Assembly (NCBI GenBank): GCA_965178125.1
Contig: OZ237743.1
Location: forward strand, 124,001 to 188,000
Source of the DNA: Bilabrum cf. latius
Taxonomy: Eukaryota
Reading direction: 5' to 3'
DNA length: 64,000 nt
Every line of letters starts with the position of its first letter. Position 1 is the first letter of the stretch. The translations under genes and the position numbers were made by a program. This document shows, one piece after another, positions 2-40,816 of the stretch. The notes beneath the pieces were generated by a model, which worked only from the letters and a program-made list of their open reading frames with translations, was not told the origin of the DNA and ran no database searches.

Positions 2-2022
2 GAATAGGAGCGGATGCAGCGGCGGGAGCGGAGTAGGGCCAGCCCGGTGCCGATGCAGGCTCCAGCTCCGCCCGATGTGGTGCGTGACCCGGAGGGCCGG
101 GCCCGCATGGTGCGCGTGGCGCCTGCTGAGGACGGGGGGCTGGCTCTGGTACTGGAAGAAGAGACGTGCCTTGCCACCGCGCTGGTGCAGGTGCAGCTGC
201 GGGCCCTCAAGCAGGGCATGGCCGAGTACTCGAGGGGTCCCGGGCTCGTGTAGCCAGTGGTCATTCGAGACGCGGGGGAGCTGATCAGGCAGGCGGACCG
301 CAGGCGGCTCGTGAGGGGCCTGCAAGGCAGCAGGAGCAACGATAGAGGCGTCATCACGAAGGGCGGGAGGGGCAGTGGGGGCGCTGCAGAGGGTGCTTCG
401 GACCGGGTGCATGGTGGAGGTGGCGGCGGGGACGGCAAGTCGTCGCAGTGGGAGGAGGAGGGGACAGGGCTTGTCAGCAAGGGGGGCACTCGGACAGCAA
501 ACGCCGCTGCTGCCTCGTCGCACTCGTCACACCACTCGATGGAGCGGGCCGTCCGCATCGCCACGATGTTCAACGCGATGGCCACCGGCCGCGTGACGGG
601 CCCTCGGCCCCGCCACCGGCCTGTGATTTCGCCCGAGAGGAAGAGGCAGCTGGCCGCGATGCGAGCCGCGCGACGGGCCACCGGGGGCCATTCCGATTCC
701 GATTCCTCGGACGACGACGAGGAGGCACAGCGGCGAGCACGCGGGGGCAAGGGGCACCGCATCGATTCGTACCAGCAGCCCCTGCCGCCGGCCCCAGGGT
801 CAGGCCAAGCAGCCCGTGCCCCTGTCTCTGGCGCGGGAGGAGGCAGAGGAGGAAAGAGAGGGAAGGGAGCCGGCAGCGCCCGCCCGTCCTCCCTACCCAA
901 GCCGCCGCCCGCCGCCAAGACATCGGCGGGTGTGGGCTGCCGCACGAGCCGGTGGTTCAACTTCACGGGTCGCGGCGGAGACACGCTGGTGGTTGAGGAA
1001 GACATGCGGGAGAGCAACTACTGCTTCGACGTGCCGCACAAGATGCTGCTGCTGCTGCGGAGGCAGAGGCAGCAGCATCTTGACGCTGTGCGGGGGGAGC
1101 TCTACCGCTTCGAGGGCCAGCTGGACGCGCTGGGTCCGGTGATCCGGGGGACCATGCGGGCGCACGATCGGAGGGCAAGCAAGGGTTAGGGTGCGGGCGG
1201 GCGGGTGGGCGGGGCTGGCACCGCTTCCACTCCACTGCTCGGGGGGGTCTCGTCCCCAACCAGGGGCGGGGCCACCGCGGGTGGTCGCAACCTCGTGGAC
1301 TCCGAGGGCGAGGAGGACGAGAGCGACGGGTGGAGCGTCGCGGACATGGATTTGATCGACCAGTACAGCGCGCTGGAGGCCACTCTGTCGCTGAGGCGGG
1401 AACTCGACTACGTGCTGGGCTGGCTGCGCGCGCACGAGACCAAGGTGAGGCAGCAGATGGAGCTGCTGGACCAGGCCGTGCAGGTGGGCCACGGGGGCGT
1501 GGGCCCCGACGCGAGCACATTCAAGCAGAGCACCAAGCGCAAGGCGGCGGACTGGGCCTACATGCCCATTAACCTGCACGTGCAGGAGCTCAGGGTCAAG
1601 GAGCTCAACGACCTGCCCCCCGCCAAGCGCTACCACGGCACCGCCAGGGAACTGAGGATCCTCGAGGATTCCCAGGGAACAATGGGCGGCGGCAGCCAGC
1701 TGGACCGACGGGCCGCATACGTGGAGGCCCTCAAGATCGCCCAGTGGGCCGTGGCCAGCGACCAGCTGGGCGAAGGGGGGCACCAGGACGACGCCGGCAG
1801 TGGCAGTGGCAGTGGCGCCGGGGCTGGGAGAGACCCTGCATCCTCCCGTGCCTCGCGGCTGAAGCGGCTGCGGGCCCAAGCTGCGGCTGTGCTTGGGCCC
1901 CCCGTCGCCGTGGAGCACTCGATCCGGCCGTGGAGCCCCTTCGGCCGGTGGGCCCAAGCCCAGCGGAGACTGAGAAGGCTCGTTGACGAGATGCTGGCGG
2001 TGCGGGCGAGCCAGGCCTAGGA

Positions 2023-2061
<39 letters not shown>

Positions 2062-6231: not shown

Positions 6232-6533
6232 ACGTTTCTTTGAATAAATCTACATGAATTCATTGTACTAGAACTGGACCAAGCCTCTTTGCGCGGTGAA
6301 TGCAAGCTCCAGGCACCACAGATGCCAAGTTGAAGTTGGCGTTCTGCCAGTGGCAGTGCCGTGCAATTCAGTGCTCTCCCAGTTCTCTTGGTCGATCCAA
6401 AACAAGGTCGCTTCCTCCCCAAGACGACACAAATCTCACACTAGTAGGGCTAATGGGTGCCTTGAGTGGTTCGCGGCGACGATGCTGCGTGTGCTGCAGC
6501 CAGGTATCGGAGCTGTGCGGTGGCCCTGCATCG

Positions 6534-8150
6534 ATGGATTGTAGCAGCTTTTTCTCTCAGCTGTTCCAGCCGGGCACTGCTCCGTACCTGGCGATGATTG
6601 TGGTTGCTCTTGTGATTGCAAGGGCCACAGACCAAGTGTTCTACTATCGCATTGCTATCGCGATGTCTCCCTATAGCTGGTATTTTAGCTCGTGCATCCT
6701 ACCCATTGCGTTCCTGATCATTGTTTGGCCAATCGTTGGGGCCAAGCTCATCTGGTACCCGAAGCACATCACTAAGGAGATGCTGGCGATCCCGTAGCAC
6801 AAGTTTGCCGTGCTCGGCGCTCTGGACACGGCGTACAACCTGCTCAGCACCTGGCCCATCAAGGCCACGGGTTCCACAGTGGCCAACGTCCTCGCTCAGA
6901 GCGTGCTTCCGATCAACATGGTCATGTCGTTCGTTGTGCTGCGCACCCGGTACACGGGCCAGCACATGTCTGGGGCTCTGCTCGTCATATATGGCGTGCT
7001 GCTGCGGCTGCTCCCTGCCCTGCAAGACTCGAGCGACGAGGGCGACGGAGACGACGAGGTGCCGGCGGGGGCCTTCCTGGCGTGGAGCGTGGTGCTGGTG
7101 GGCTCCCAGATATTCGCGGCTCTCTCCAACGTGTACAAGGAAGTTGCCCTCAAGGGAACCGAGGACGTGGACGTGTATTACATGAATGCATGCATATCCT
7201 CCTGGCAGCTTCTCTTCGGGATTCTGACGGCACCGCTGGTCGGACTCAAGTTCACTCCCGATTACGTCCCGCTGAGCGAGCTGGGGACGTACATATCCAA
7301 CGCGAACAAGTGCTTCTTCGGGCACAACGCCGTGGCAGGGGACGTGTGCGACGCCGACTCGGCCTCTCCGATGGCTATCTTCTGCATCTTTATCGCTTTC
7401 AATCTCACGTACAACATACTCATGCTGGAGATATTCAAGCGGGGGTCCAGCGTGCTGTTTGTGGTTGCATCTGCAGTGCGACTGCCACTGGTGGACATCC
7501 TGCTGCTGTGGCCTCTTCTCGCGGGAGTAGCCACCGCCACATTCACCTCCTTTGACGCGTTTGCGCTGGTCGCTCTGCTGCTGGCCATGTACCTGTACAA
7601 CTCCCAGCCGGAGATCAAGTCGAAGAGACCTCCCCTTGGGCTGCAGGAGCTGTGGGGCGGGTTTGTGCGGCACTGCCTGTGCTGCGAGTGCGGGTGCCTG
7701 GAGCAAGTGCTCGAGGGCGGCGAGCACGGGGATGGCGAGACGCGGGGGCTGCTGGACAATGGAGCGGCAGGATCAGGATCAGGATCAGGATTGGGTAAGG
7801 GGACGGGCGGGAAGCTCAGGCTGCTGGCAGCAGCGCCCGGGGCCACAGGGATGGCGGTTGCGCGGGCCTCCTACCTGGACGAAGATGAAGATGAAAACGA
7901 AGATGGAGCATCCGCGTCTGCGGCCGCACTGCGAAGCAGTGTGGAAGGCGATGGTGTGGTGCTACTGGACGCTGAAAACAAGGCGGTGGGCGCTGGTGCT
8001 GCTGCTGCTGCCGGTGTGGGCAGGGGGCTCGGGGGGGCTACCCATCGGGGGGGGTATGGAAGCGCGGATGCGGCTGCGGCCGGCGTGGGCCCAAGCGATG
8101 GTTCGACTGGCTCCTCTGGGGAGGAGCCTGCGGCTGTTCCGGCATTGTGA
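6534..8150 (+). CDS. CRT-like (chloroquine resistance transporter / CLT family, DMT superfamily) transporter
   Basis: ORFs 6300-6797 and 6810-8150 are joined by one TAG (6795-6797), giving ITKEMLAIP[TAG]HKFAVLGALD. About 10 hydrophobic helices. Family-like segments include QSVLPINM, ALSNVYKE, MNACISSWQ, KCFFGHN and FNLTYNILML. Ends at TGA. The start could instead be ATG 6453. Confidence 0.85.
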
Positions 8151-9179: not shown

Positions 9180-9418
9180 CGCGATTCAAACACGGCTCCA
9201 CGTGGCCGGCTGCCTACAACAATCTCTCACACGCTGCTCGCTATAATGCAGACTATTTGGCTGCCTTGGACTCGCCCGATTCCCCGGACATTGCCGCTGC
9301 AGGTGTCTCAAGAAGGTGCTCCACGCAGACCACCAGCAAGTGGTCTTGCAGTGGGCTGCAACTGAGCTGCGGATGCAGGGTGCGCAATTTGGATCCACTA
9401 TTGAGGCCGTTCGGTACA

Positions 9419-11098
9419 ATGCGCAACCTCCTGATTGCTTTCATTGCGTGTATCACTGCTGCATTTGCCAGACCACGCCACCTGCGGATGAATTTGATCA
9501 GAAAGGAGGGTTCCATGCGGTTTGCCTGGAATCAGCTGCAAACGCCGCAGTATCCTACGCTTGCACTGGGTTCGTCCCCCACAAACATGTCCCAAACAAT
9601 AAAAGCGCAATGTCATACCTTCAGTTAGGGAGATCTCTGCGGTGCACCCGCCACGGACCCGGAAAACTGGGTCAACCCTGGGTTCGTCTGTGTGGCCACA
9701 GCGTCTGGACTGCCTCGCGACGGAAAGCCAATGTACTACTCCGTTGGCGATGGAATACAAGCCGCTAATAAGTCGGATGTGTTTGAGTTCCGTCCGAGTC
9801 CAGTGGATACCACCGGGACAACCGCACGGTTGCTGATAACCGCAGACACTGGGACCACTGGCCACGCCGTTGCGACGCTGTCCAACATGAGCAAAGCCAT
9901 CGAGCGCGCCGAGAACTTGAGTACCAGCCATGGGATCGTTGACACCAGCTCGTTCGACCGTCCCGTGGACCTGGTGCTGTTCAATGGAGACCTTAGCTAC
10001 GCCATGGGCAAAGCTAGCAAATGGGACGAGTTCTTCTCACAGATGCAGGGCATTGCAGCGCGGGTCCCAGTGAGTTTCTCGGTGGGGAACCACGAGTTCG
10101 ACTGGACTGGGCAGGCCTGGGATCCCTGGTGGTCGGACATCTGGTGGGACACTGGCTCCCAGGGCGAGTGCGGCCTGCAGTACGACGCTCGGCTGCAGCA
10201 GGAGGGGCCAGCGCCACCAGGGCCCCGAGGGAACAACTGGACGGCCCCGGGGTACTACTCGAACGTGAACAACTACTGGTACAGCGTCAACCGCGGCCCC
10301 GTGCACGTGATTGCGCTCTCCACGGAGCACAACTACACGACCGGGAGCCCCCAGCGGCAGTGGCTCGAGAAGGACCTTGCAGCAGTGGACAGGACCCCCG
10401 GGCGGGGAGGCACCCCGTTCGTCATCGTGATGTTGCACCGGGCGCTCTACGACACCACGCTCAGCGCGCTTCTTCCCGAAGAGTTTGCTCTCCGGTACGA
10501 GCTGGAGCCCGTCTTTGAGCGGTACAACGTATCGCTGGTGCTGCTCGCGCACATCCACAACTACCAGCGCACATGCGCGGTCTACGACGGCAACTGCACG
10601 GGGTCCGATGGGTGGGCCCCCGGCATGCAGTTCCGGTCCTCGCAGTCCCTCTCGACCCCCGGGGCTGTCCCCAGCATGGGGCTCGGGGAAATCGAGGCCC
10701 GGCGCCTGGCTTTGCAGGGGCTGGAGGAGCGGCGGGCGAGGGCCATCGAGACTGGGCACAGGGGGGTGAGGGCGGTCGACGGGGTGAGCCTTGACCCCAC
10801 CGGGGGGGCGCTGGAGCGGGAGCTCAGGAGAGCCCCGGGGACGAGAGGGGTCTACGGCGGGGATGCGGGGGGTTCCGGGTCCCCCCCACCAAGGGGTCGG
10901 CCCTACGTGGTGATCGGATCAGGGGGCAAGACATCGGGCACCCGGTTCTGGGTGACGGACCCGGAGTGGCTCGCCTTCCGGTCGGAGGAGTTCGGGTACC
11001 TTGACCTCGTGGTGCACAACCAGTCGGTTGCAACCGCTAGGTATGTCTCGGATCCTGACGGGGTGGTGCTGGACGAGTTTTCCTTCGGGCCCTACTGA
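9419..11098 (+). CDS. Secreted purple acid phosphatase / nucleotide pyrophosphatase-like metallophosphoesterase
   Basis: Signal peptide MRNLLIAFIACITAAFA. N-terminal domain TFS[TAG 9626]GDLCGAPA...WVNPG. Metallophosphoesterase motifs ADTG, GDLSYA, GNHE, VMLH and AHIHNYQR. Ends at TGA 11096-11098. Confidence 0.9.
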
Positions 11099-11693
11099 CC
11101 ACTGGCACCGACCGGGGATGTGGAAGGGAGCTTGGGGCGTGTGCATGCGCCGCCAGGGCAAGAATCGGATGGGCTCTGGGAGGACCGAATTATAAGGATG
11201 AGAGTGACTGGTTGAATGAATTTCGGTCGGCGCGGTGGTGCGCCACGGTCCACTGGGGCCGTTGCTTGCTTGCGCTGTCGGCATAAACGAACAAATTCGC
11301 TCTCTGGATTTGTTGAGCAATCAGTGAGATCAAGGAAACGGTACATTCATTCTGCCCACGGCCGGGCAGGCATGTTGTCGTACGGCCGTCACCTGGACGA
11401 AGTGCCGCTACTGCAAGCGTACCTCTCTGGGAAGCGCAGAATCGATGAGGGCAAGCAGCACGACAGATCTCATCACGTTTCTGAAATCCCGGAGCTCACA
11501 AGAGCGCGCGGCGGAGTACGCCTTCACGCAGATGGGGAAGAGCCAGCTTGGTGACCGCGAGCGAGGACACGCCGACGTGGCTGAGGCCCTGCTGCACCTC
11601 CGCGACGACAGCCACAACCGCGCAGCCCAGCACCTTACTACCGCAGGCAAGGTTGATCTAGACAAGGAGCTCGTTCTACTGCTGCTCGAAATG
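11039..11693 (+). repeat. Left copy of a ~660-bp diverged direct repeat (partner at 24985-25647)
   Basis: Colinear near-identity by eye from aggtatgtctcggatcctgacgg to gacaaggagctcgttc...ctcgaaatg. Confidence 0.9.
11372..11693 (+). pseudogene. Decayed 5' fragment of the F-BAR gene (copy of 25300-25647)
   Basis: Relative to the intact copy it has a 30-nt deletion (SIADEAKAVV) and a 1-nt frameshift near 11460, and it is truncated at about 11693. Confidence 0.8.
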
Positions 11694-11736
11694 GCATGCA
11701 TTGACCCACCAAGCCGCCATTCTGCGCGAAATCACA

Positions 11737-14700
11737 TCATGCCTCTTCTCCATTGTCCATGGCCCCCTTGCGATCTACGCTAGCAGTCGCACTGTTTGCC
11801 CCCACGACCACCGGGCCCTGCTTCTACTCCCAGTCAGTCAATGGGGGCAGCTGCACCCCGTGGCCAGTCATAGCTCGCAATCCCTTCGACCCTGCCATTG
11901 CCCTGTCCACAGGATGCTTTTTAGCAGTGCCTCTTCTTGGGATCTCCTGCTCACGCCGGTCCGTATCACCTCCGAATACAACTGAACCAGCCAGGGAGCA
12001 CGCCTCCCGCACCTTGCCGGTGATCTCCCATCGCAGCACCCACACGCACCAGAGAAGTACCCCCACGTTCGACAGGAACACCACCATTGTGGCTGTTGTC
12101 AGCACGGCATCGCTCGAGTTCTCGTCGTGCAGGAAGAGACCCGCCTCAAATGTCAAGAATGCTCCCACCAGCGCCACCAGCTCGAGCGTGTTGAGCGCCG
12201 TGGCTTCGTACGGCTGATTCAGCGAGTGCAGCACAGCAGCGGCGAAAATCACGGCGATGGCGGAGTACGTCTGCACGCGCACGCCCATGGGCTCCACCAG
12301 CACCGTGATGGCCACCACGGCCAGCTTCCTCAGCATAATCACCACTTCCCAGTAGTACGCGTGGTCCCTAAAGCCGGCCGTCAGGAAGCCCATAGTGGCG
12401 ATCACGCCAGGGGCATGCAGTCGGTCACTCACCCACCAGAGTCGCAGTCCAGCCAAGAGCGGGATCCCCACGGCAAACACCAGGATGGCTGGAACGCCCA
12501 CACCGTACATGATCTGCAGCGCTCTGGGGTTGTGGCAGCACACGTCAAGGTCCAGGACCAGCCGCCGGTCTTCGAACCCTTCGGGGCATTCGTCATGCCC
12601 CGCCGGACTCGTGGCTAGCGGACCCATCTGCTGGTCACCACCGTCTAAGTCTACATCTGGCTCTAGGCTGGTGCATGACAGCATCCCGAACGATGCCTCG
12701 GTCAGCGTCAGATGCACCAGGAATGCGATCACAGTCAGACCCGAGAGGATCCGCATCCCCAGCGGGAGCTTCACAGCGGCTAGCGGCACTCCCACGCAGC
12801 CCAGTACAGTTCCTTCGCGCCGACTAGAAGCGAGCCAGAAGTACTCAGCCACTGGAGGCAAGGCAGCAGCAGGCACGGGACCCATAGTCACTGAATCAGC
12901 ATGTGACTAGGGCACAGCGGCACCGCCCTTCAAGCTTGTCGATACTGCCGTGTCTTGACCGAAGGATCTGGTGGGGACTGGAGCACCGCTGGACCCAGAC
13001 AGCAAGGACCTGAATCGGCTAGTGCGCTGCCGCATGATGCCCGACCGGCGAGCAGCGCTCCCCTTGCCTTGGCTGCTACTGGTCGTGATTGGGCTGCGTG
13101 GGCCAGGGTCGGAGCCGTGCCCACCATGCCGAGGTGCAGACGCGCTTCTACTCGGGCTCGATTCACGGTGCTTCTCGTTTCCGCTTGGCACGCCGCGCTC
13201 CTCGAGCACCGTCTCATTGCCCTGCCGCACCCTAGCGAGCGGATTGAAAGTCATCCTTTTCCTGGCAATCTAATCGTTGACCGGCTTCCCTTGTCTGTGC
13301 CCACCCTGACTCGCAGATTGAATCCCAGTAGCACCTGGACTCTCAGCTCCCCCTTCCTCCTCTCCTTCTTCCTCGTCTTTATCACCGTCAGTGACAACCT
13401 CCTCGGGCTCGTGCAAGCACCCGTCGATCAGATCCACAACCACCCAGAACAGGGCCAGTCCAGCAGCAAGCAAGAACGGAGTCAGCAGCACCACAATGGT
13501 GCGAAGGAGATACGAAGATCCGTGCGGCATGTTGGCTGCAAGGCCGCCCTGCATCTGCTACAGATTCACCCCCAGCACGTTCTCTTCGTGCATGGCAAGC
13601 GCCTCGGCAAGCACCCGCTCGTCCTCCAGCTGGGTCCCAGGCCACGTATCGTGCGGTGCACCCGACGTGCCACTGACACCGGACGCTCTACTGCTATTGT
13701 GTTGTTGCAGAATGCCTGTCCAAGCCTCCAGCGCAGCTGCCTGTCTGTTCTCTTCTGCACTTTCTTGCAAATCTCCAGTGCCCTGCTGCAGCATGCAGTC
13801 CAGGCTCAGCACTTCTGAGCTGACTGATGACACGGAGCCCATGGTGTTGAACAGGCGGATAACACCATCTGGCCAGTTGAGTTTGAAGGACGCAGCGATT
13901 GCCACCACCTACACATGCGAGAAGAGGATCTTGATGGTGGCCATACCCACGTTCTGGCCCCCGGCCCGCTGCCCGTGCCCTCGCTGCCTTGGCTGTGCCA
14001 CGTCAGCAGCACCCGGCGCGCGTCCAGTTGCAGTGCCGGGGGCCATGTTGGCTGTTCTGGCGCTGGTACTAGTGCCAAAGTCTGCCCCGGCTCTTCCAGC
14101 AGCATGTGTGGCCGTAGTTGTCGATGCATGCTAGTCTCTGTCCTCGTTTTCGTCCGAGGAGCTGTCATCTCCTAGCAATTCCATCAGCCGTTGGTGTTCC
14201 GACTGCACCGGCTGCCTGTTTGCGGGGCCCATGGAAGATGCACCACCTTGCAGCACGAGTGCTAGCGGATTTGTGCTTCTCAATGTCTATTCCACTGCAG
14301 GCTGCTTGGGATACGCCTTCCCTACCGGTTTCAAACCCGACTAGGCCGCGCGCTAGTTTAGAGCAGGCGCGCTAGCAGCCTCACTTGTGGTCAGTTGCAC
14401 TGTAGTAGCCCCCTGCTTTCCTGCAGCAATCTTTTCCCTACCATCACGGGCGTAATCACCGCCTTGCTTAGCCTCCATCGCTGCCAGCGCGCCCTTCCGC
14501 AGCGCATTCAGTACAAGTCCGATGGCCAGCAGCAGCACGGCCATAGACACTAGAATCGCCACAAGCACAACCACGAAGCCGCTCTGGCACTTGCGGCACT
14601 CGGATGGACCCCATGTTGTGTACCCTGGCATGCATCTGGCACACAGCAGCCCCCCGTACCCCTCGGCGCAAGTTTCACCAATCCACAAGGGGGCACCGGC

Positions 14701-17700
14701 ATCAATCAGCGAGGAGACATCCGCAGTGACCTGCACCGTTGTCAGATTTTCCATTGAATCCGACACGTACCTCGCCCGCACCAGCGAGGCTGACTCCACG
14801 ACCTGCTCTCGCTGGTACAAAGTGGAGATGGTGGGAACTTGCTGCTGCTACTGCTGCAGCTGCCTCTCGAGGGACCTGCGCACGTGCGGTGGAGCACGCG
14901 CAACTAGCCTTCTGGTCTGCGTCTGATTGATGCTGAGGGACGTTAATTCTGGCGGGGCACCATCGACCAGCGAGAGACATGATTCTGGCCGTGGGCACCG
15001 AGTGAAGGCAACCCTTCCTGAGGCCCACGGAATCCGCTAGTATCCTGGGGCTGCAGCAAGCGTAAAGGAGGACCCGCCCCTGCATCGAGTGGCCAGCTGG
15101 TCGCATGATCTGCAGCCCCAGTCCTCAGGCTGCAGGTGCGTGGTCAGAAACTCGCTCTAGGCGCAAGTCGAGGGTGATCCGGGGGTCCACGAGGAGAAAG
15201 GGCCCGGGCCCGCCTCGCTGATGGACCGGATCCGGAGGGCCATGGGGCGGGGGTCGATGGCAGTGAAGGAAGTCCGCATGAGTGCCAATCCGCCCGCGGA
15301 GCTTGGCCTCACGTCTATATCAGAAAGGTCAATTCGGAAGGCAGCGGCTTCGTCTTCTTCTTGGTCTTGATCTGCCCCGACTGAGGCAGCACCGGAAGCT
15401 GGTTCTCGTTCTCTCGTCAAGTTTGCCCCGCTCACGCCAAGCAGCCTCGATTGGATCTCAAACCCGTCCAGTCCCGCCAGTCCCTCCGCCACGATCTGCA
15501 CCTGCCCCGGGTCACGGAAGGTCCAGCGCACCTCGAACCGTTCGTTCCTCTCCCTCCAACCCTGAATGGAACTTGCAACGTATGGCCATGGATCTCCGAT
15601 GACGCCGTACGTGAATAGCGGGGCCGTTGCCGGATCGCTGGATAGGCCCCCACTCTAGTGCACCACTACCTGCAACCCGTCGATCTGGTCCTCCTCCAGC
15701 TGAGGCACCACGCACTCGATCGAGGTCTCGCCCAGTACAACCACGTCCAGGCACTCGTGCGGTCCCAGCATCACGCGATCTGCATCATTATTTTGCCGGC
15801 CCAGGCTGCGCCCTGCAATCACGAGACGCTCCCCGGCTGTGGCGCCGCTTGGGGCCACCGACGTCACTATTGGCCGCCCCAGTGCGGTGAAGAAGCGGTT
15901 GCGAGGACTCGTCTGCTGGGCCACCTGCACCTCAACCTCAGATTCACCCGGCCAGCTAGTCCCATTCACGCCAGTGCACAAGATCTCCGTGCTGGATACA
16001 AGGCGCACCGCACTGCAGGGACTGCCCCCGACTGACACACGCTCCACGTCTGACTGCTCGAATCCGAAGTGCACTCCTCTTACCGTGAACTGAGCTAGCA
16101 CCTGTGGCCCCGTCAGGCTGTACGATGGCTGGATCTCCTCCACCAGCGGCCGCTCGTAGCTCACGGTCGCTTGCGTAGACAGCTATACGGAGCCACCGGC
16201 CACTTGCGACTCGTCGTTACCACCGCCTTGCTGCACTTCTTCCGCAGAGCTCCCGCCCAGCGTGTGCACCGATACCAGCACATCCACGCCCACGCCGGGC
16301 TCGCAGTACGCCAGCAGCTCAGTGTCCGACACCCACAGCACCACGCGAGAGGGCCCACCGCCCACTTCCACACGATCCACAGCCCAAGGAGCCACACCCA
16401 GGCCCTCACCTCTGATCTGCAGCAGCCCAGCGGAGGAGGGCGCTCCCACCAGCGTTGGCGCAATGCTTGATACGGCCACCGCATCCAGGACCACCGAGGT
16501 TCGACCGCTGGGCGCCACTTCTCCGCCCAGCCCTGCTGCCTCCAGCAGCAGCTGCAGCTCATGTTGCGCTGTAGTCACCGACCCAAGAGCCACCTGAGCC
16601 CGACGCGCCGCTCCTGCGAGCACAGCGTCAGCACTGCCGTTGGAGGGGAACAGCCGCGGGCTCAGCACCTGCACAGCCGGGCGCCCCACCAGCAGCACCG
16701 TCCCGCCCGGACTAGACTGGGCCTGCAATAGGATCGATTCTTGCACCCCATCCAACTGGCCCGATGCATCTTGTGTCCCCACACTGAAGTGAACGGACAC
16801 CAGCTGCAGTGCATCAGAGAGCTATTGGCCAGACGCGGCCGAAGCAGCTGCCTGCCAGTCTACCACTGTGCACTGCACCCTGGAGATCACACGGACCGCC
16901 TGTGCGGATGCCGAGCTGGCGCGTACTGCGTGCAGTGACACGTTGGTACACGACGTATTCCACCCCTGGCCATCCAGCCGCACCAAGCCTGCGCCTCCCG
17001 TTGTCACACGGTCCCACTGAGACAGGGCCGATCCTGCATGACTCACGTCCAGCAGGAGCCGCAGACCCGCTTCTAGCAGATAGGCAGTGGCGCGGGGATA
17101 CGTGCTGATGCTGCCACTGTCTACACTGCTTCCGTTGGCCCTAGTGACAGCCAACGAGCCCGTCCTTCCTGGGTTTGGGCCTCCTGAGAATGTGGCCCGC
17201 GTGATCACTGGAGCCGCATAGTCCACAGTGGGTGCAGTGTCGATTGCATTCTCCCCGTTGCGCACAGATAAAACCTGCACCCTATGCCCAATACCCACAC
17301 CTGGAGGCAGCAAACACCGGAGTCGAGTGGCCGGCTCCAGCATCACCAGCTCAGTGCAAGCGTAAGTCCCAACCTGCACCCGGGCGATGGTGTCCACGGT
17401 GTTGCCGAGCCCATTGCCCTCGATCACGATCCACCCGCCATCGCCGGACACGCGGCCAGCAGGCACGCCATCGACAGCATCAGGTGTGACTGACTGCACC
17501 TGTACAGGGGGCTGGAACTGGAAGCCCGTAGGAGCAACGGATTCACGACCCGTAAAAATCACTCGCACGCTGAAATCCCCGGGGGTCCATTCCGGCCGAA
17601 TCTAGGTGCATTCCATTGTGCTGTCGTTGTGCACAAGCACATCGGGGCATTCTTTCCCCGAGATCACCATCCGTGGCGAGGTGCCGTTGCCGCCCGTCCG

Positions 17701-20700
17701 AGCAGACCCAAAATGACGGCCTTGCACGGTCACGCGATACACAGATTCTTTGTCGTTGAAGATCGTGTCTGGGTCCACCAGTACCGCATCGATCTCAGGG
17801 GCTAAAAAACGCACCACACCTGCGCTGCTAGCGTAGCTTCGGCCCTGTCGAGAGCGCACAGTCACTATGCCATCCGAGCCTGGACTAGGCATTAGTGTGC
17901 AACTTATCACGAAGTCAGACTCGGCCGATACGTTAACACATGGTGCCCCATCCACGTCGATGCTTTCAATGAACCCGCCGTCCACGGCCCCCAGCTGGAT
18001 GCCGACCAGCTGCAGCTCCGTGCCCCCTGCAGGACTCACGATGGACGGATTGGAACCGAGCACGGTTGGATCCACCCTGGCGAAGAGCTGGCTTGAAGAC
18101 CACTCGGCCAGCTGTGGCGGCGGGTCCACGTTGCTGCTCCACACCCCTGTCTCAAAACTTTCCCTCGGGTCAGCTGATAGCTGTCGCCATTCCTGCGCAT
18201 GCAGTCTGGCCCGCTCCGACCTGTTCGACTCCAGCGCGGCATTGAGCGCGCCTATCGGTCGAGGTACCACCCGCAATTCGTTGGAAGCCACGAGATGCGC
18301 CCGCACCGAGCATCGGAGCTCCGTGGCGGACACAATGACCAGCGGGTCGCATCTTTCCCCGCCTAGAAAGATCGCCCCGACATTGATCTCCATGCGGGAT
18401 GTGACGAGTGCAGTCCCTCTGAGGATAACCGAGTGCCTGGTGGAGTTATTTACGTTGTTCTCCACCATCGAAGACACGTCAATGGTGGGAGGCTCCACGG
18501 CCTGCACTGCGGCGGGGGCCAAGTCGACCCACGCTGGTATCGCGTCAACCGAGGACACATTCCCTCTTGCCGGTGCATCGTCGTCTGACACGCTGCTCTC
18601 CTATTCCCTGTCCGCCACGACCACCACAGCGGCCGTGTCCAGCCATGATAGCCCGGGCAGCTACACAGACATCGATACCGGGCCACCGATCGCGCCTGCA
18701 GGCGCAGTGCACAACAGCTCCGCTGCCCCCGGTGCGCGTTCCAGAATGCCGTCGCAGGGGTACACTCCAAGAGTCCCGCGCAAGGACTGCCTCGAAAGAG
18801 TCAGGGCAGATGACTCGAGCGAGGACCATACTTGAGACAGACCCCCGGTGGAATCCCGACTACCCATCGAGAGCACTGCAGCTCCCTGCACCCAGCCCAG
18901 CCCCAGCGATCCCCACCCGTCACCTCGTGGTACAGCTCCGATCACGCCGCCCTCACCAACGCTGGCAGGCCAATTGCTGCCGCTGCTGATCAAGCCAATC
19001 GCACCCTGCATGCCCACCGCAATACAATGCACCTCATCTGGTCCGGGAGCTGCGTCGTCGATGGTTTGCCCGCTGGCTAGTTCACGCAGCAGTAGCTCGC
19101 ACGCCCTTGGGTCGTTGCTAGACACGACTACCTCGCCAACGCTGCCCCCGTCAGAACCGGGCAAATGCACCTGCACCTCGGCCACGCCCGGTAGCAAGGG
19201 CTGCTCGGGGGTGCACTGCAGGATGGTGCGCATGCCTTCGTCAATGGCAAATGCACTGGACACTGGACACCGGACTCCACCTGCCCACACATGCCCAAGC
19301 TCATGCACCCTGCCGAGCTCCGATGGACGGGGCAGGTGCATTGAACGATGGGCCATCACAGCAATACCATCCCGGATTCTGCCCGTGTACACAGCCTGAC
19401 AATCACCCACAGGTCCCACATATTCCACCACGCCAGTTGCAGTATTGCCCTCGCTACCGCGCAGCTCCCCTTCGGACAGCAGACAACCAGCCTATGCCAC
19501 ATGCCTCAGCAGTGCCTAGCCATTCCACCCAGCCGCTGCATCTTTGGCAGATGCCGCATCTACTGCTGCCCCCAGTGCCACTACGTTTGCTTCTGTGAGA
19601 GGTGCAGCCCCCATTCCATCACTCGCTAGGCTCTCGTTCAGTGCACTGCACATCGCCTGCTGTTCGCTGCAGTCCAGCGAGGCTTGCAGCGCCTGCGCCA
19701 CGGGCAGCATCCACGGAGGCCTCGAATGCAGTCTGGTGGTGTTGGCCTTGTATGCTACTAGCCCACGCCCACTGCATCCTGGCGATGCTGCCAGCAGGTG
19801 GACCTCTTGGTCGCTGATGGATGCATTGGGCTGAGCAAATGTAGCGAGTGCAGTGCCGAGCTAGCAGCCGGGTCCAACGCCGGCGGGAACAGGAGCCTCG
19901 ATTCGCTCCGAGCTCAACACAACCGCTGCATCGGATGATGAGTTCTGGGTTGGGCCCAACCGGCTCCTCTGATCCACCCGCAGCAGCACTACTGCACCAG
20001 CAGCGTCGTCAAAGCCAGGTGCGCCCACAAACACGTCCATCGTACGGTCCAGTCCAAAACCCAGGAGCTCAATCGAGGCCCCAAAGCGGGAGCGCTCGAA
20101 CTGCCCCGGCCAGTGCCCATCCAGTCGTAAGGGCATCCGGGCAGGGGATAGGAGCTGGTGGTCAGAGACAGACATGGTTAGAGATCCAGCCGGGTCCTGT
20201 TGCACGGCCAGGTGTAGCAGCACCACGGCTCCGAATCTCCTGTCCTATCCAGACAGCGACAGATCCACCCAGTCAGGCGCGCCTACCAGTATCGACACCT
20301 CGCCAGTGGCCTGGCCAGGCCCCCATGCTGTCTCTTGCCTCTCCTCCCGAATCGGGCCCAGGTACTCGAGCGAGGCCCCAAAGCTGTCGCGGGGTGCTCC
20401 TGTGACGGACTGTATCACAGCGATGCGGGTGCCGTTCCAGTCTCCCCTTGGACTCTTGCTTGTCGTAGATGGGCTGCCTGTTGGGTGCAGTGCATGCACA
20501 TGCAGCTCTCCCTGCTGCGGTGCCCCAGCCGCTACAACTGGTGCGTGCATTCTCCTATGGCCAAGCATCGACTGGCCCAAGAAACCCACCGATGCACCCA
20601 GCGAGGTAGGCCCGCTGGCTACCGTCACATTGGAGAGCAGAGCCGTTGGTAGTACAACTCCACTGGCACTGAGAGCTGTCCCTGTCGCCAATCGACTGGC

Positions 20701-23700
20701 ACTGAGAGCTGTCCCTGTCGCCAATCGACTCACCCACAGCTGTCCTCTGGATGCGTCCCCCACCAGCAGGGAAATCGACCCGTCCCCCGCGCCCAGAGGC
20801 CCCAGCGAACACGCCGCGCTGCCATCTAGGAGCACCCTCATGCCAGCAGGCGGATGGTCTACGGCAGGTGCACCATGATCGTTTACTGTCGCAATCCTGG
20901 CATGCAGCAGGCCCCTGCTGACCCAGTTGTGGTAGCCCATCTCAGGCCCCGTGCTTGCCTGTCTGTCAACCTCTAGGGGTTCACCCTCCAACGCAACGAA
21001 CCTTCGTTGGCTAGCCCCCAGGATGCCTATCGACACATCAAGTGAGACAGGGGATGGTGATAATGATCTTGTAGCAGAGCCGGGCAACGAAGTGAGGCGG
21101 TGTATGGCTGTGGATTCAGCAAGCTCTGCCTCAGGGCCTAGAGCCAGCACCCACACCGTGCCTCGACCGCTGCCACCGTCATCATCACCGCGCGCCCCAA
21201 CGACAATGTCAACCACACCGTCACCATCCAGATCCGATAGCGATGCCACCGATACGCCAAATTCGTCCACATCGTCCAGCTGTCCCGTGAAGCCCCCTTG
21301 CGTGTCGGAGATCTTCTGATGCCCCTTTACCGTGCCATCCGATCGCAGGAACAGCACCCACACCGCGCCTCGATTGCTGCCACCATCATCGTCAAAACGT
21401 GCCCCAACAACAAGTTCCACCACGCCATCACCATCCAGATCCGACAGAGATGCAAGCGATTGCCCAAACTAGTCCCCATTGTCCAGCTGTCCCGTGAAGC
21501 CCCCTTGCGTGTCGGAGATCTTCTGATGCCCCTTCACCGTGCCATCCGATCGCAGGAACAGCACCCACACCGCGCCTCGATTGCTGCCGCCACCACCGAC
21601 ACCGAACTCAACTTCTCCCACGGCCAGGTCCACCGTGCCATCACCATCCAGATCCGACAGAGACGCTAGTGACTTGCTGAACCAGTCCCGGTCGTCCAGC
21701 TGTCCCGTGAAGCCCCCTTGCGTGTCGGAGATCTTCTGATGCCCCTTCACCGTGCCATCCGATCGCAGGAACAGCACCCACACCGCGCCTCGATTGCTGC
21801 CGCCGCCGTCATCGTCGCCAAATACTCCCACGGCCAGGTCAATCACACCATCACCGTCCAGATCCGACAGAGATGCCACCGATGTGCCAAAATAGTCCTG
21901 GTCGTCCAGCTGTCCCGTGAAGCCCCCTTGCGTGTCGGAGATCTTCTGATGCCCCTTCACCGTGCCATCCGATCGCAGGAACAGCACCCATACCGCGCCT
22001 CGATTGCTGCCGCCGCCGTCATCGTCATAGAATGCTCCCACGGCCAGGTCCACCGTGCCATCACCATCCAGATCCGACAGAGATGCCACAGATACACCAA
22101 AATTGTCCCGGTCGTCCAGCTGTCCCGTGAAGCCCCCTTGCGTGTCGGAGATCTTCTGATGCCCCTTCACCGTGCCATCCGATCGCAGGAACAACACCCA
22201 CACCGCGCCTCGATCATGGCCGCCGTCATCGTCTGTTGCTGCTCCAACGGCCAGATCAACCACGCCATCACCGTCCAGATCTGACAGAGAAGCCACCGAT
22301 ACACCAAACAAGTCCCCACTGAACAATTGTCCCGTGAAGCCCCCTTGCGTGTCGGAGATCTTCTGATGCCCCTTCAGCGTGCCGTTGCTCTTCACATTAT
22401 TGTTTGCCTGAAGGAGCACGTGGGGTCCTGTGCCCCTTCGCACCTGCACGCTGCTTCCGCTGTCGGACCCCAGCTGCAGCTTCCCATCCCCGTCAATCTT
22501 GCATTCCACCTTGCCGCCAGGTAAACCCACCACTCGATCGCAAGCACCACCCAGGGCTGTAGCTCCAGCTGCGCAGCCATCGGGGACGAGACATGGCACC
22601 TGCCCGAACTCAAACTCCGTGCCATCGTCCCACGCCCTCGTCAGTGACACGTTCACGAACCCCTGGGGCGATACGGACCATCCCCGGATGGAGTCCTCCT
22701 GCAGGCGCACCTCGATTGAGTTGGTTCCACTCGCCACCATGGCGCACCTCGACTGCAGCATAGGGCCTCCACAAGACGTCGTGGGGAAGGGGGGATCAGC
22801 CAGCAGATGGGGGCCCCTGCCAGGGCACCCATGCACGTTCGCATTGCGGGGCCAGAACCGCAGCAACAGGTCCACATTTAGAGTCCCGCCGAGTCCCTCG
22901 GCATACATGTCCGCCCACGCGACTCGCTTCACGGGAAATACGGCCCGATAGGAGTCCAGCAGCTGGCCACCTGCTACCAGCATGAAATGGAACTCCTCCG
23001 CCTCAGTGCCTGTCATGGATGAGTTGTAAGCCAGCTGCACCCGCACGCTGCCTTGCAAATACCCGAGCTACAGACGAGCGCTGGAGGAGGCACACTGTGA
23101 CTGGGTGAGGACAACACGCCTTCCACTGGAATGTGCTTGCCCGGATGCATTAGAGTACAACTATCCGTTGACTTGGTGCGCCTCGATGCCAACGCTCCAT
23201 GGATTGACGAGGCGGGCGGGGTCGATAGTGTAGCTGCCCTCGGCTCCGAGTATCGGAACAATGCTACGCGGGGTGCTGCGCAGCTACAGCACCCACACCG
23301 CACCTCGGTCAGTGCCGCCGTCATCGTCACCAACTACTCCAACGGCCATGTCCACCATGCCATCACCATCCAGGTCCGACAGCGATGCCACCGATACACC
23401 AAAATAGTCCCGATCGTCCAGCTGTCCCGTGAAGCCCCCTTGCGTGTCGGAAATCTTCTGATGCCCCTTCACCGTGCCATCCGATCGCAGGAACAGCACC
23501 CACACCGCGCCTCGCCTGCTGCCGCCATCACCATCATAGAATGCTCCGACGGCCAGGTCCACCATGCCATCACCATCCAGATCCGACAGAGATGCCACCG
23601 ATACACCAAAATAGTTCGCATTGTCCAGCTGTCCCGTGAAGCCCCCTTGCGTGTCGGAGATCTTCTGATGCCCCTTCACCGTGCCATCCGATCGCAGGAA

Positions 23701-24711
23701 CAGCACCCACACCGCGCCTCGATACTCGCCACCGTCATCGTCATAGAATGCTCCGACGGCCAGATCAACCACGCCATCACCATCCAGATCCGACAGAGAT
23801 GCCACCGATACGCCAAAGCGGTCCCAATCGCCCAGCTGTCCCGTGAAGCCCCCTTGCGTGTCGGAGATCTTCTGATGCCCTTTCACCGTGCCATCCGATC
23901 GCAGGAACAGCACCCACACCGCGCCTCGATTGCTGCCACCATCATCGTCACTCAAAGCTCCAACGGCCAGGTCCACCGTGCCATCACCGTCCAGATCCGA
24001 CAGAGATGCCACTGATTGCCCAAACTAGTCCCCATTGTCCAGCTGTCCCGTGAAGCCCCCTTGCGTGTCGGAGATCTTCTGATGCCCCTTCACCGTGCCA
24101 TCCGATCGCAGGAACAGCACCCACACCGCGCCTCGATACTCCCCACCGTCATCGTCATTCAAAGCTCCAACGGCCATGTCCACCATGCCATCACCATCCA
24201 GATCCGACAGAGAAGCCACCGATACGCCAAAATTGTCCCGGTCGTCCAGCTGTCCCGTGAAGCCCCCTTGCGTGTCGGAGATCTTCTGATGCCCCTTCAC
24301 CGTGCCATCCGATCGCAGGAACAGCACCCACACCGCGCCTCGATTCTCCCCACCGTCATCGTCTGTTGCTGCTCCGACGGCAAGGTCGGTCATGCTGTCC
24401 CCGTCAACGTGTAGCAGTGTGGCAACAGACCCACCAAAGCTATTTCCATTCGCAAGCGTACCATCGAAGCTTCCGTGTATGCTGGATATCTTCGTCTGGT
24501 TCCAAACTTTGCCATCACCTGAAGCAGGGGAAGATTGCAACGCCCTTGAGGCAGAGCTTCCATGTAGGGTTTCAGGCTTCGTTCTGCGGTGCGATGCCAC
24601 AAATGAATTTGCTCTCATATCCGCGCATATGCAAGTGGGGACAAACGACGTGACACGTGCAGATACAGTCATGCTTTGCTTACTGACGGGGCCACTCTTG
24701 CATTTCAGCAT
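11737..24711 (-). CDS. Giant (~4,324 aa) cell-surface protein: two FG-GAP (integrin-alpha-like beta-propeller) arrays, several IPT/TIG Ig-like domains, a Cys-rich segment and a C-terminal multi-pass TM domain
   Basis: Seventeen minus-strand ORFs of the track (24025-24711 down to 11824-12891) share one frame. I traced the gaps and found about 27 TAGs and no TAA/TGA until TGA 11737-11739. Motifs: DLDGDG..DLAVGA repeats; IPT-like PVITSVAP / GRNFG / IECVVP patterns; CAEGYGGLLCARC; KILFSHV[TAG]VV..NWP; YYWEVVIMLRKL. The start codon is uncertain. Confidence 0.85.
20662..20727. repeat. Perfect 33-bp tandem duplication (in frame, SRLATGTALSA x2)
   Basis: actggcactgagagctgtccctgtcgccaatcg occurs twice head-to-tail. 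Confidence 0.9.
21130..22385 (-). repeat. FG-GAP tandem array 2: six units of ~207-210 bp
   Basis: Unit KISDTQGGFTGQL-x5-FGxSVASLSDLDGDGxVDxAVG-x3-DDDGG-x2/3-RGAVWVLFLRSDGTVKGHQ is repeated six times. Confidence 0.9.
23284..24490 (-). repeat. FG-GAP tandem array 1: six units of ~207 bp (first unit divergent)
   Basis: Same unit as array 2, with a nearly identical scaffold nucleotide sequence. Confidence 0.9.
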
Positions 24712-24984: not shown

Positions 24985-25647
24985 AGGTACGTCTCGGATC
25001 CTGACGGCCCGGGTGTGGTGCTACTGTCCACGGCACCGACCTGGGATGTGGAGGGGAGCTTGGGGCATGTGCATGCGCCGCCAGGGCAAGACTGGGGTGG
25101 GCTCTGGTGCGCAAATTACAAGGATGAGAGAGAGTGACCGGTTGAATGAATTTCGGTCGGCGCGGTGGTGCGCCACGGTCCACTGGGGCCGTTGCTTGCT
25201 TGCGCTGTCGGCATTTACGAACGTTCGCTAATTGGGTTCGTTGAGCAATCGGCGAAACCAAGGAAACTGTACATTCATTCTGCCCACGGCCGGGCAGGCA
25301 TGTTGTCGTACGGCAGCATTGCCGACGAAGCCAAGGCGGTTGTTCGTCCGTTGGATGAAGTGCCGCTGCTGCAAGCGTACCTCTCTGGGAAGCGCAGAGT
25401 CGATGAGGGCAAGCAGAGTGTGGAAGATCTCATCGCGTTTCTGAAATCCCGGAGCTCGCAAGAGCGCGCGGCGGAGTACGCCTTCACACAGATGGGGAAG
25501 AGCTAGCTCGGTGACCGCGAGCGAGGGCACGCCGACGTGGCTGAGGCCCTGCTGCACCTCCGCGACGACAGCCACAACCGCGCAGCGCAGCACCTCACCA
25601 TCGCGGATGAGATAGACAAGGAGCTCGTTCCTCCGCTGCTCGAAATG
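24985..25647 (+). repeat. Right copy of the ~660-bp direct repeat (decayed phosphatase 3' end, intergenic DNA, intact F-BAR gene start)
   Basis: Aligns to 11039-11693. Encodes a remnant RYVSDPDG matching the phosphatase C-terminus. Confidence 0.9.
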
Positions 25648-28600
25648 AAGGCCGACCTTGCTGCCATGCAGGGAGAGCTGTACAAATCCGACCGTTTGGA
25701 GCGCAGCCTCCGAAGCGCCGGCGACCGCTGCCGGCGCGCCTACACCTCGCTTCTCTCTGCCCACGGCACCCTCGTGCGATCCGCGAAAGCCGCTGGGAAA
25801 CCGGCACGGGCCTTGTGGAAGGCTCCTGTGGACCGCATATGGTCCATGCAAGAGTTGCGAGAGCGAAGGGAAGCGGCCCGCAAGGCCAGGCCCAAGCCGT
25901 CGGAGGCCCCTCGGCAAGCAGCAAGCTCCGGGAAGGTGACAGCGCCAGCTGGGAGAGGGACAGGAAAGCCGCCCCCTGGTCGCAGCGAGCCTCCTGCGGA
26001 CGCGACGATCGCCACGCCCAAGGCCGAGCAGCCTCCTGCAACCCCTGGCAGCGAAGGGGGCGACGGGGGCGCGACCCCTGGCCAGGGAGGGGGTGACAGC
26101 ACCCCCCCGGGCGGTGGCTCGGTGCAGCGGGCCAGGGTCAGCTCGACTGGGAGCGACGGTTCCGGTTTAGGATCGGCCCCCAGCGGGTCCAACCGTGCGG
26201 GTCGCGCGTCCAGCTCTGCCTCCTCCTCTCAGCCGCAGCCGCGGCAGGGGCAGGGGCAGGGGCAGGGGCAGGGGCAGGGGCAGGGGCAGGGGCAGGGGCA
26301 GGGGCAGGGGCAGGGGCAGGGGCAGGGGCAGGGGCAGAGGCGCGTGTCCAGGGCGGGGAGCGGGGCGGGAGCGCAGCAGCAGGGCGCCTCAAGGCAGCGG
26401 GGGGTTTCTGGCCAGAGGCAGCGAGGAGGTGTGCAACCGGGCGGCACTGGCGCTGGCACCGCCCGCTCTGGGATGATGGGCCGTCTGCAGAGCCTCTTCT
26501 CCGCCCCCGTTGACCCCGAGGAGGCCAAGCAGAAGGACTACGCCTATGCCGTGGAGCAGGACCTCAAAGCCAGGAGGGAGTGTTCCGGGGCGTGGAGGGG
26601 GTACAGGGACGCGAAGACCGAGTACCTGGAAGGCGTGGAGGCGGCCTGCGGCAGGATGGACGAGATCGAGTCCAGAAGGAGGGCGCTGCTGGCGGTGACC
26701 GTCAGGCACCTGCTGCTGCACCAGAGCAGCATGCTTGCCAACCTGCAGTTCGACACCCAGCAGGCCGCTAATGTGGCGGGGGACGCCGAAGAGGCCGCGA
26801 GGGAGCCCCTGCCCCCGCTTGTTCCCCGGCCCTCCCCTCAGGGGCAGACTGGGGGGGAGGTATCTGCGGCGGTGCTCAAGATGAGGAGCCGCAGCAGGAC
26901 GGGGTCCCAGGCGCTGGGTCTGGGCAAAGAGGGGGCGCGGGGGGGCAGCGGTGCGGCAGGGGGTGGTTCCGCAGGCGCCGCGCGCGTCAAGCCGGTGTCC
27001 CGTCAGCAGATGGGCGCCGGCCTGCGGCCCGGGGTCGTGCAGTACGCCGTGCATCTCGCCTTTGCTGCCCGCGGGCTTACTCTGGGCAAGACGCTCTCGG
27101 GGACAGTAGCAGGTGCAGGGGCAGGGGGGTCATCTTCGCCCCTGGCTGCCGCCTACATGGCTCTGCCTGCTTCGGTGAGGAAGGACGTGCAGCTGAGGGA
27201 GCTGGTGTGGACGGATGCGTCGAGTGACGACGAGGACGAGGAGGGGCAGGGATCGGGAGCAGAGCGCAAGGCCGGGGCAGGGGGCAACTCCTCGATGGAC
27301 CTGGAGCGGCTCATGTGGATGGACGGCGCCGTGCTGGCTGGCGCTGGCAGCAGCAGGCATGGGTCCGGCGGCAGGGGCTCGGAGGGGGGGGCAGGGGGGG
27401 GGGGATGCCTCGCCGGGCACGCCCAGCGGCTCACAGGCCGGGGTGAGGAGAATCGGGGGCGCGTTTGACGGCAGCTGCGTGTTGGTGAGCGAGAAAGCGG
27501 CCATGACTGCGCCCGGCAAAGCAGCATCGGCCGATGGCGGCCCGCAACCCGTGCTGGCCACCGTGCGTGAGATGCTCCGCGCCGCCGTTCCCGCCGCCAA
27601 GCAGGCCCTGGACAAGGCACAGGAAGGAGGAAGCGGGGCACCCGCTGCCGGTGCAGGCAAGGCATCGTCGCCAACGTCCAAGCCGCAGCAGCCCAAGGCG
27701 CCAGATGCAGTGCGCCAGCTGGTCGCGGCGCTTGACGCCCGCAGGTCTAGGGGGGTGCGCTGCGGGTCCGAGGATCTCGTCGTGGTGGCCGGGCTGGTGC
27801 GACTTGCATTGGATGCAGTGCTGGCGGGCGAGCTGCACCAGCTGGGACGGTCGTTGATGGTCCTCGGACAGACCGCACACTGCATCGAGCGGCAGTCGGG
27901 AAGCAATGGGGAGATGGAGGGGGATGGGCCTGCGGCGCGGGCGGCAGCAGAGGAGCAGGCCAAGCGGGCCGATGACGAAGCAGTAGCTGAGGATTCGCGA
28001 TAGGACGGCAAAGCCGCGTCTGGCGCCGGTGCATCGGGTCAATCCGGCGAGAAGGACTCGGACGGCGGCAGCGGCGCGGTGGTGCGGCGTGCGAGCAGCG
28101 GAGGGGGGGCCGGCAACCGGGTGTACCTGCGCGATCTGGTCCTCTCTCACCCGCTGTGGCAGTCTGCGACCTTCTGGGAGGCGTGCGTGTTCGAGACACT
28201 GGGCGCGGAGATGTCCAAAGTGGCGCCTGTGGGCGGGGCAGGGGGGTCGGGTGCCCCCGGTGGGGGGCTGGGGGGCACCCCCTCGGAGCCCGAGGCGCAG
28301 GGTAGGGAGGAGAGAAGGAGGTCCGAGGCGGCGGTGGGGTTTGGACAGCTGCACTTCTGGGCGTTCGCGATGAGTCAGTACGGGGTGCGCCGGTCGGACA
28401 TCGTGCGGATGCTGCACAAGTACCGCGTGTTTATGGGGATCGAGGACGCGCAGTGGGAGGCGCTGCTGGGGGCGGCGGGGGTGCAGGAGGGAGGAGGGAA
28501 ATCTGGCGAGATGGGAGATGCAAAAGGGGCTGAGAAAGGCTCTGAAGAGGCTCCCGGAGAGGAGGCCCCGGCGGCTGTTCACGCGACCGACGCCGAGCCA

Positions 28601-40466: not shown

Positions 40467-40816
40467 TCTGCTAAATAGGCGTGCTGGCTGGGCTGTGTGC
40501 TATATAGACCTTGTTACTAGCAGGCCCTGGAGCCGGTGGTGAGTAGCGAACACTTTGGCTGAATGCCGAACCGGTAGCACTAGGACGAGATGCGCCCGGA
40601 GTGACGCACTCCTTAAATTGTATAGAAAGAGGTGTGGTAGCAAAGCGTGAGGGTTTGCGATTTGTTTTGTTTCAGAATGAAGCGCCCCGGATGAAAGATG
40701 CCGCGTTCCAGTTCCAAGGTTCCGGTCGGCGGCGTTGCGTGCATTTGGACATGCCTGCTTGGATCCACCCCGTTCTAGCTTTTACGTGTCTCGCAGAGAA
40801 CCTCTCGCGAGTAAAC

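Follow-up and report, generated by a model that had tools for sequence, protein, structure and literature searches.

To our knowledge, UAA and UAG are almost always reassigned together, and the few cases in which UAG alone has changed come from transcriptomes or fragmentary assemblies. The code in which both codons mean glutamine (table 6) is that of ciliates, hexamitids and ulvophytes; a code in which only UAG has passed from stop to glutamine is of the code-15 type, and context-dependent stop codes are of the type found in Condylostoma and Blastocrithidia. UAG-only glutamine codes have been described in Iotanema (PMC5304391, PMC9161772) and in Hartmannula, Trochilia and Protocruzia (PMC11687900); the accessible parts of these papers give no decoding tRNA for any of these cases, and the cases listed in those of PMC11687900 include no stramenopile.

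The genome described here very probably belongs with them; the reading that best accounts for its sequence is that UAG is decoded as glutamine by a single tRNA(CUA), with TAA and TGA as stops and a divergent eRF1 that is predicted to be largely blind to UAG. TAG would then stand at glutamine positions throughout the genome, and TAA and TGA would end genes. This is the code of Iotanema spirale, a fornicate of an unrelated lineage with UAG as glutamine and UAA and UGA as stops (PMC5304391, PMC9161772), and of the ciliates Hartmannula sinica, Trochilia petrani and Protocruzia tuzeti, where again only UAG is changed to glutamine (PMC11687900). According to the consulted parts of these sources, Iotanema eRF1 carries T32G in the GTS motif, which is intact here, and the Iotanema tRNA was a prediction, derived by mutation from tRNA-Gln(CUG), whereas the present gene has been located and resembles tRNA-Tyr more closely (PMC5304391). 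In H. sinica and T. petrani the suppressor tRNA was not detected, whereas a tRNA(CUA) gene was found here; unlike those ciliates, the present organism is a GC-rich stramenopile with TGA as its main stop and an assembly of 111 contigs (PMC11687900, as far as consulted). The code itself is already known; the major lineage is new to it, the gene for the decoding tRNA has been located, and the virus population follows the code. It appears to be the first nuclear change of this kind in any stramenopile. Nuclear reassignment in a bicosoecid or any stramenopile was not found in a literature search that covered mostly papers outside subscription, in part only, and an earlier report may exist; the available portions of PMC4409740 and PMC9952930 yielded no passages on genetic codes, and those of PMC13768787 nothing relevant.

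The window (the whole 64,000-nucleotide stretch analysed, G000:C9:124001-188000) comes from a eukaryotic assembly of 48.6 Mb. With TAG as sense its five longest reading frames have 4324, 3514, 2375, 1652 and 1581 codons; under the standard code, or with TAA as sense, the longest frame is at most 1054 codons, with TGA as sense at most 1152, and in 30 pentamer shuffles of the window at most 732. Thirteen coding frames hold 96 TAGs in 18,242 codons, and Pfam domains extend across TAGs, as in a CRT-like transporter gene (6300..8147, plus strand) whose one TAG, at codon 166, lies within the domain (residues 99-433). The 4324-codon frame (11740..24711, minus strand) encodes a predicted membrane protein of FG-GAP and IPT-TIG repeats, has 27 in-frame TAGs and a TGA end, and has at least eight paralogues elsewhere in the genome, including on contigs C42, C33, C18, C5 and C16. 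A DUF3638/DUF3645 gene runs on the minus strand from 53457 to past the window end with 35 TAGs inside the window. Two plus-strand frames of 2375 and 1581 codons (40475..52310), ankyrin and SecA-like, carry 8 and 13 TAGs and overlap at 47568-47599; together they look like one very large eukaryotic ankyrin and SecA-DEAD-like protein, spread over two frames and some 3900 residues long. Overlapping frame changes within apparent single genes were seen at 47568-47599, 53457-53650, 27197-27465 and 38700-38757; that at 53457-53650 has GT and AG borders, and they are probably introns. ARAGORN called a tRNA-Thr at 21543-21629, within the FG-GAP repeat region of the 4324-codon frame; the call is likely false.

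The preliminary description had proposed TAG as a synonymous glutamine codon from four sites in this window, and all four TAGs are present as it stated, each in frame within a long coding frame. In the first, a short glutamine run (14836..14862, minus strand), positions 14859-14839 read CTG CAG CAG TAG CAG CAG CAA; the TAG (14850-14848) is codon 3288 of the frame at 11740-24711 and its surroundings are rich in indels, with GAG in two paralogues and TAG in one. At the second (2018-2020, plus strand) the TAG is in frame in an ORF at 2-4957 with eight TAGs and no Pfam match, but the claim that it replaces CAG is less clean, since it stands at the edge of a (CAG GAG)7 array with GAA next to it (2018..2061). 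The third, at 53723-53721 in a QE array (53706..53729, minus strand), is in frame within the ORF at 53457-63998 of the DUF3638/DUF3645 gene. The fourth rests on a duplication: AGC TAG CTC at 25504 (TAG at 25504-25506) in a plus-strand frame (25150..27465) lies opposite AGC CAG CTT at 11544 in a decayed partial copy (11092..11693, plus strand) of 25021-25647. The segments are 84% identical, 13 of the 21 substitutions fall in third positions, and the decayed copy has a 22-base deletion and frameshifts. Two points were not confirmed here: the 'F-BAR' label, for which Pfam gives only a weak, below-cut-off BAR_4 match (E 0.00095), and that the gene is one intact frame, as a second frame (27197-28891) overlaps its end.

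Taken singly these four examples are weak, and they are insufficient to show that TAG means glutamine, because the glutamine run is indel-rich, with GAG and TAG in its paralogues, and the difference from the decayed copy is a single event. Two or more glutamine codons lie within two positions of 9 of 222 TAGs (4.1%), compared to 1.4% for all codons, and only CAG (5.7%) exceeds this enrichment. A stronger repeat example than those of the preliminary description lies outside the window, near G000:C9 201428-205036, in a TBC-like frame that reads EQD TAG D TAG D TAG D TAG E TAG EQVQ, in which, following a CAG, TAGs and acidic codons take turns.

The exchange of TAG among paralogues was counted in six pairs from the family of the 4324-codon gene (16,688 well-aligned codon pairs; the pairs share sequences and are not independent). 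TAG was paired with TAG 27 times, CAG 31, CAA 2, GAG 5, TAC 1, TTG 1 and other codons 25 times; CAG thus takes 31 of the 65 changes, which also include CCG (5) and TCG (3). Per occurrence of the rarer codon, CAG-TAG exchange was 0.26, compared to 0.28 for the synonymous pair CTG-TTG and 0.23 for CAG-CAA, and only 0.003-0.045 for non-synonymous first-position C/T pairs. The preliminary description had proposed to test whether TAG and CAG replace each other as often as synonymous codons do, as opposed to pairing of TAG with GAG, TAC or TTG as often as with CAG or CAA; the rate is indeed the synonymous one, and those three codons occur 5, 1 and 1 times, against 31 and 2 for CAG and CAA. The non-synonymous share of TAG changes (32/65) is like that of CAA (49/103).

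The amino acid at TAG was examined further in 19 dynein heavy-chain frames totalling 61,982 codons (counts that include one frame, L074, ending in intron read-through), with 271 TAG, 2261 CAG, 391 CAA and no TAA or TGA. At columns with at least 70% agreement among the paralogues of this genome, glutamine stood opposite 15 of 21 TAGs, 131 of 187 CAGs and 16 of 19 CAAs. When decoded by likelihood against 120 outside dyneins (191 sites), TAG gave log-likelihoods of +7.4 for Gln, -155 for Lys, -163 for Glu, -243 for Leu, -313 for Tyr and -365 for Trp; the same decoder recovered all 61 sense codons and placed TAG as glutamine by 162 log units. The Gln score of the TAG sites lies at the low edge of gene-matched CAG and CAA samples (13 of 300 were as low); therefore TAG favours less conserved sites. 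Its fraction of glutamine codons climbs from 0.6% to 25% with falling GC3, as for CAA. In these results TAG behaves as a minor glutamine codon similar to CAA, and the proposal of a synonymous codon is supported by both the decoding and the rate of exchange.

Two other accounts of the TAGs bear on these counts. If UAG were sense for another residue (Leu, Tyr or Glu) or for a mixture, one could point to Glu as the second commonest partner of TAG, to an eRF1 TAG whose column is mostly Leu, and to the Tyr-like acceptor stem of the tRNA described below. Among 85 conserved dynein columns, however, TAG stands at Gln in 34, Glu in 11, Leu in 4 and Tyr or Trp in none, and its Glu share is equal to that of CAA (15/115); together with a G73 discriminator, where eukaryotic TyrRS needs A73 (PMC9976931, as far as consulted), and a short variable loop that speaks against Leu or Ser, this makes any residue other than glutamine scarcely credible. 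A TAG in GluRS proved uninformative as an aromatic-column site, the column being variable among the 78 of 150 homologues that have the motif (Trp 17, Tyr 17, Glu 11, Gln 9). Alternatively, the standard code could hold and U-to-C RNA editing convert UAG to CAG before translation, which would yield the same glutamine alignments and the same exchange with CAG. This is extremely unlikely: TAG also exchanges with CAA and tracks its usage, no corresponding surplus of TAA in place of CAA is seen (the 19 dyneins have no in-frame TAA), an intact tRNA(CUA) gene exists, and as many as 67 of the 227 glutamine codons in twelve virophage genes are TAG.

Reading UAG as glutamine in living genes is also consistent with where the codon is found. 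In-frame TAGs occur in conserved and essential genes (eRF1, PRP8, GluRS, small GTPases, proteasome), with up to 48 in a single gene. Frame breaks in one dynein and one paralogue could suggest nonsense mutations in pseudogenes, or misassembly, but in the dynein frames TAG alone occurs, never TAA or TGA, essential single-copy genes carry it, and it recurs in the contigs of other studies and in a second species; the chance that the TAGs are artefacts or decay is negligible. Contig stretches matching the window from three other studies, one spanning 13928-15229, carry the same TAGs with no differences among the matches listed; these are probably DNA and so uninformative on expression or editing. 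A search for RNA data covering window positions 5500-15400 listed none.

Stop codon use was assessed at 42 defined gene ends, namely 20 small GTPases with a prenylation motif (from 30 loci, the other ten being internal exons or motif-less tails) and, with ends set by homology, 14 proteasome-family genes, seven dyneins and eRF1. In this sample, which is not the whole genome, TGA ends 36 genes, TAA six and TAG none. A code in which UAA also means glutamine was rejected, as TAA terminates genes and no long frames appear when it is read as sense, and so was a context-dependent stop code, with TAG at none of the 42 ends. A codon-pair model run on 264 kb flagged two coding segments as ending at TAG, and both frames continue; one is a virophage polymerase, misjudged by a model trained on the host. 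Glutamine codons number only 24, one of them TAG, within 30 codons of the stop in the 42 genes, so that a depletion of TAG close to stops could have escaped notice.

It is conceivable that UAG has a dual meaning, glutamine inside genes and stop near some mRNA ends, or that its decoding competes leakily with eRF1. Consistent with this, the main eRF1 motifs are kept, TAG slightly avoids the most conserved glutamine sites, two virophage genes end in TAG TGA, and TAG occurs in the motif-less tails of two small-GTPase-like genes (L143, L147). Yet one such capsid end, TAG TGA, stands opposite CAG TGA in its paralogue, in another small GTPase gene (L152) TAG is read through a few codons before the CAAX box, the two apparent TAG stops continue in frame, and neither the empty count at defined ends nor genes with up to 48 TAGs fits a stop function; we consider a dual meaning very unlikely.

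If UAG is simply a glutamine codon, a cognate tRNA is expected, and one candidate exists: a single-copy anticodon-CUA gene at G000:C23:907607-907679 with a full cloverleaf (69.8 bits) and a short variable loop of five bases. ARAGORN labels it 'Pyl', which we take to be only the tool's default for this anticodon. It was compared with 31 other nuclear tRNAs, a set without Trp, His, Asp and Leu (63 of 780 candidates having been scored). The closest of these is tRNA-Tyr(GUA), which shares 41 of 60 fixed positions, six of seven acceptor pairs, among them C1-G72, and four of five anticodon-stem pairs; tRNA-Gln(CUG) shares 36 positions and three acceptor pairs, and tRNA-Gln(UUG) 33 positions. The D stem is identical to that of tRNA-Gln(UUG), the anticodon loop is nearest that of tRNA-Glu(CUC), and the discriminator is G73, where tRNA-Tyr has A73. 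With only 36 of 60 positions in common, in an incomplete tRNA set, a one-step mutant of tRNA-Gln(CUG) was rejected; therefore the body itself does not indicate glutamine. The consulted part of a review gives eukaryotic Tyr identity as A73 with C1-G72 and bacterial Gln identity as G73 with U35, and settles nothing on eukaryotic Gln identity (PMC9976931). These features suggest, at about an even chance, that tRNA(CUA) derives from tRNA-Tyr(GUA) by G34C and A73G with the acquisition of a Gln-type D arm. It would be expressed and charged with glutamine by the GlnRS, which is single-copy in this genome and alignable to human GlnRS. A pattern search showed no UUA-anticodon tRNA (16 hits compared to 14 in the control; it misses intron-bearing genes).

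The release factor is encoded by a single eRF1 gene on contig C35 with a TAA end, two in-frame TAGs, at codons 48 and 73, and three introns placed by GT-AG borders and homology. The column of the first TAG is Gln in 229 of 234 homologues, and that of the second Leu in 222 and Gln in a few. Compared with 235 homologues, which include no named Cafeteria eRF1, and with TAG read as Gln, the N domain is altered at 14 of 85 conserved sites (median homologue 1, Bicosoecida sp. CB-2014 2), and the M and C domains are also divergent (6 of 79 and 5 of 45). In human numbering the changes include S60V in TASNIKS, seen in none of 234 homologues, L69Q, and RGNGTS to KADGTS; the substitutions near the motifs are unique, and the main motifs are kept, with GTS, NIKS, YxCxxxF, E55 and S70 all retained. 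L69A in eRF1 increases UAG read-through (PMC5304391, consulted in part), and S60V, L69Q and the KADGTS change may together have caused the loss of UAG recognition.

The organism itself would appear to be a bicosoecid near Cafeteria. Its best named dynein match is Cafeteria roenbergensis, and in a tree of one dynein gene (48 of 121 sequences, 3107 columns) it is sister to Cafeteria plus one unnamed sequence, with FastTree support of 1.0 and 68% identity. Like Cafeteria burkhardae/roenbergensis, it has an intron-poor genome, mitochondrial UGA as Trp, and endogenous virophages interrupted by Ngaro-like retrotransposons; unlike it, the GC content is about 60% compared to 70%, and the virophage capsids match Sputnik V20, not mavirus. 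The consulted parts of the Cafeteria papers name a non-standard code for mitochondria only, and a 4208-residue Cafeteria dynein is uninterrupted (PMC6972860, PMC8547959). Two metagenome contigs (L115, L116) represent a related but different species (78-80% nucleotide, 94% protein and 49% codon identity), whose 2135-codon dynein frame has 14 TAGs; in its conserved part all nine TAG sites pair with CAG or CAA, and from these sequences it uses the same code. Near 710560-710612 on contig C16 the host dynein changes frame where L115 has one open frame, from either an intron or an assembly indel. Among eight metagenome dynein loci two, identical in their overlap, have this code, five have no aligned in-frame stops, and one has both TAA and TAG; this last, AT-rich locus (L120), with 76 TAA and 8 TAG in its aligned parts, often at Gln, is from an organism reading TAR as Gln, probably a ciliate.

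The code extends to integrated viruses. An AT-rich element at G000:C9:349,684-391,642 (L097-L100, L173, L176) has 447-base inverted repeats, and nested in it are a second element of 17.7 kb, whose repeats are 454 bases long, and a Ngaro-like retrotransposon, whose repeats measure 174 bases. The terminal inverted repeats, low GC, domains of a protein-primed polymerase B, an integrase and a helicase, and a capsid and penton matching Sputnik V20 and its minor protein identify both as endogenous virophages. In genes selected manually among the listed ORFs, the inner element (12 genes) has 67 TAG, 90 CAA and 70 CAG, and the outer (16 genes) 0 TAG, 164 CAA and 35 CAG, with none ended by TAG. Of 52 capsid matches across the genome, 47 include TAG and five have no stop; 20 capsids examined fall into five TAG-using lineages, mutually 20-27% identical, and two TAG-free ones, one of the TAG-using lineages being split into two subtypes at 60% identity. 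Among six close copies of the B capsid, seven of eight variable TAG columns exchange with CAG or CAA. Most integrated virophages thus likely read TAG as glutamine, like the host. No relative of the capsid was found in viral_contigs, nor a described recoded virophage in the literature consulted, mostly papers outside subscription and in part, so that an earlier report may exist. Confirmed giant-virus isolates are stated to have standard-code hosts (PMC13524828, as far as consulted). In the consulted text on Streblomastix strix (PMC10120064), endogenous viruses likewise use the altered code of the host; there TAA and TAG both mean Gln and the elements are Maverick-Polinton-like, whereas here they are virophages, UAG alone is changed, and recoded elements occur alongside TAG-free ones, even one inside the other. 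Phages with code 15 (PMC9523058, consulted in part) also read TAG as Gln, but with a code that differs from that of their bacterial host, whereas host and virus are here alike.

That a first stramenopile nuclear recoding, a tRNA-Tyr switched to amber and glutamine, and a partitioning of the host's viruses by the code all hold jointly is possible, at somewhat less than an even chance. If they do, the five TAG-using capsid lineages would be tied to hosts in which UAG is glutamine, the two TAG-avoiding lineages would stay readable in standard-code hosts such as Cafeteria, and the giant helper virus would also be recoded or TAG-free. Recoded and TAG-free virophages in one genome offer a natural test of whether host code limits virus host range, and a Tyr-like body on a glutamine-inserting tRNA would, if confirmed, be a natural identity switch. 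The contiguous genome gives the tRNA, eRF1 and GlnRS genes together, beside a cultured standard-code relative; therefore the uncoupling of UAG from UAA becomes directly testable. The standard code would mis-annotate both this genome and the related metagenome contigs.

The mitochondrial contig (C111; 38.4 kb, 24% GC) has a tRNA for UGA as Trp, a reassignment common to other bicosoecids (PMC6723347); its forward-strand frames of at least 150 codons all end in TAA, none in TAG. Only 10 tRNA genes were found on it, which suggests heavy tRNA import. Several near-identical Met(CAT)-type tRNA genes (L042, L029, L053, L045, L054, L055), whose ends pair as U1-A72 or not at all, lie in AT-rich surroundings, as does a related Pro(TGG) gene, and may sit on mobile or viral elements. 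Two types of 18S rRNA gene are present: C12 carries a tandem array of a 1700-base form, and C95 a single gene of 1802 bases (6099-7900); the latter, which we take to be dinoflagellate-like, is probably from a co-assembled second eukaryote.
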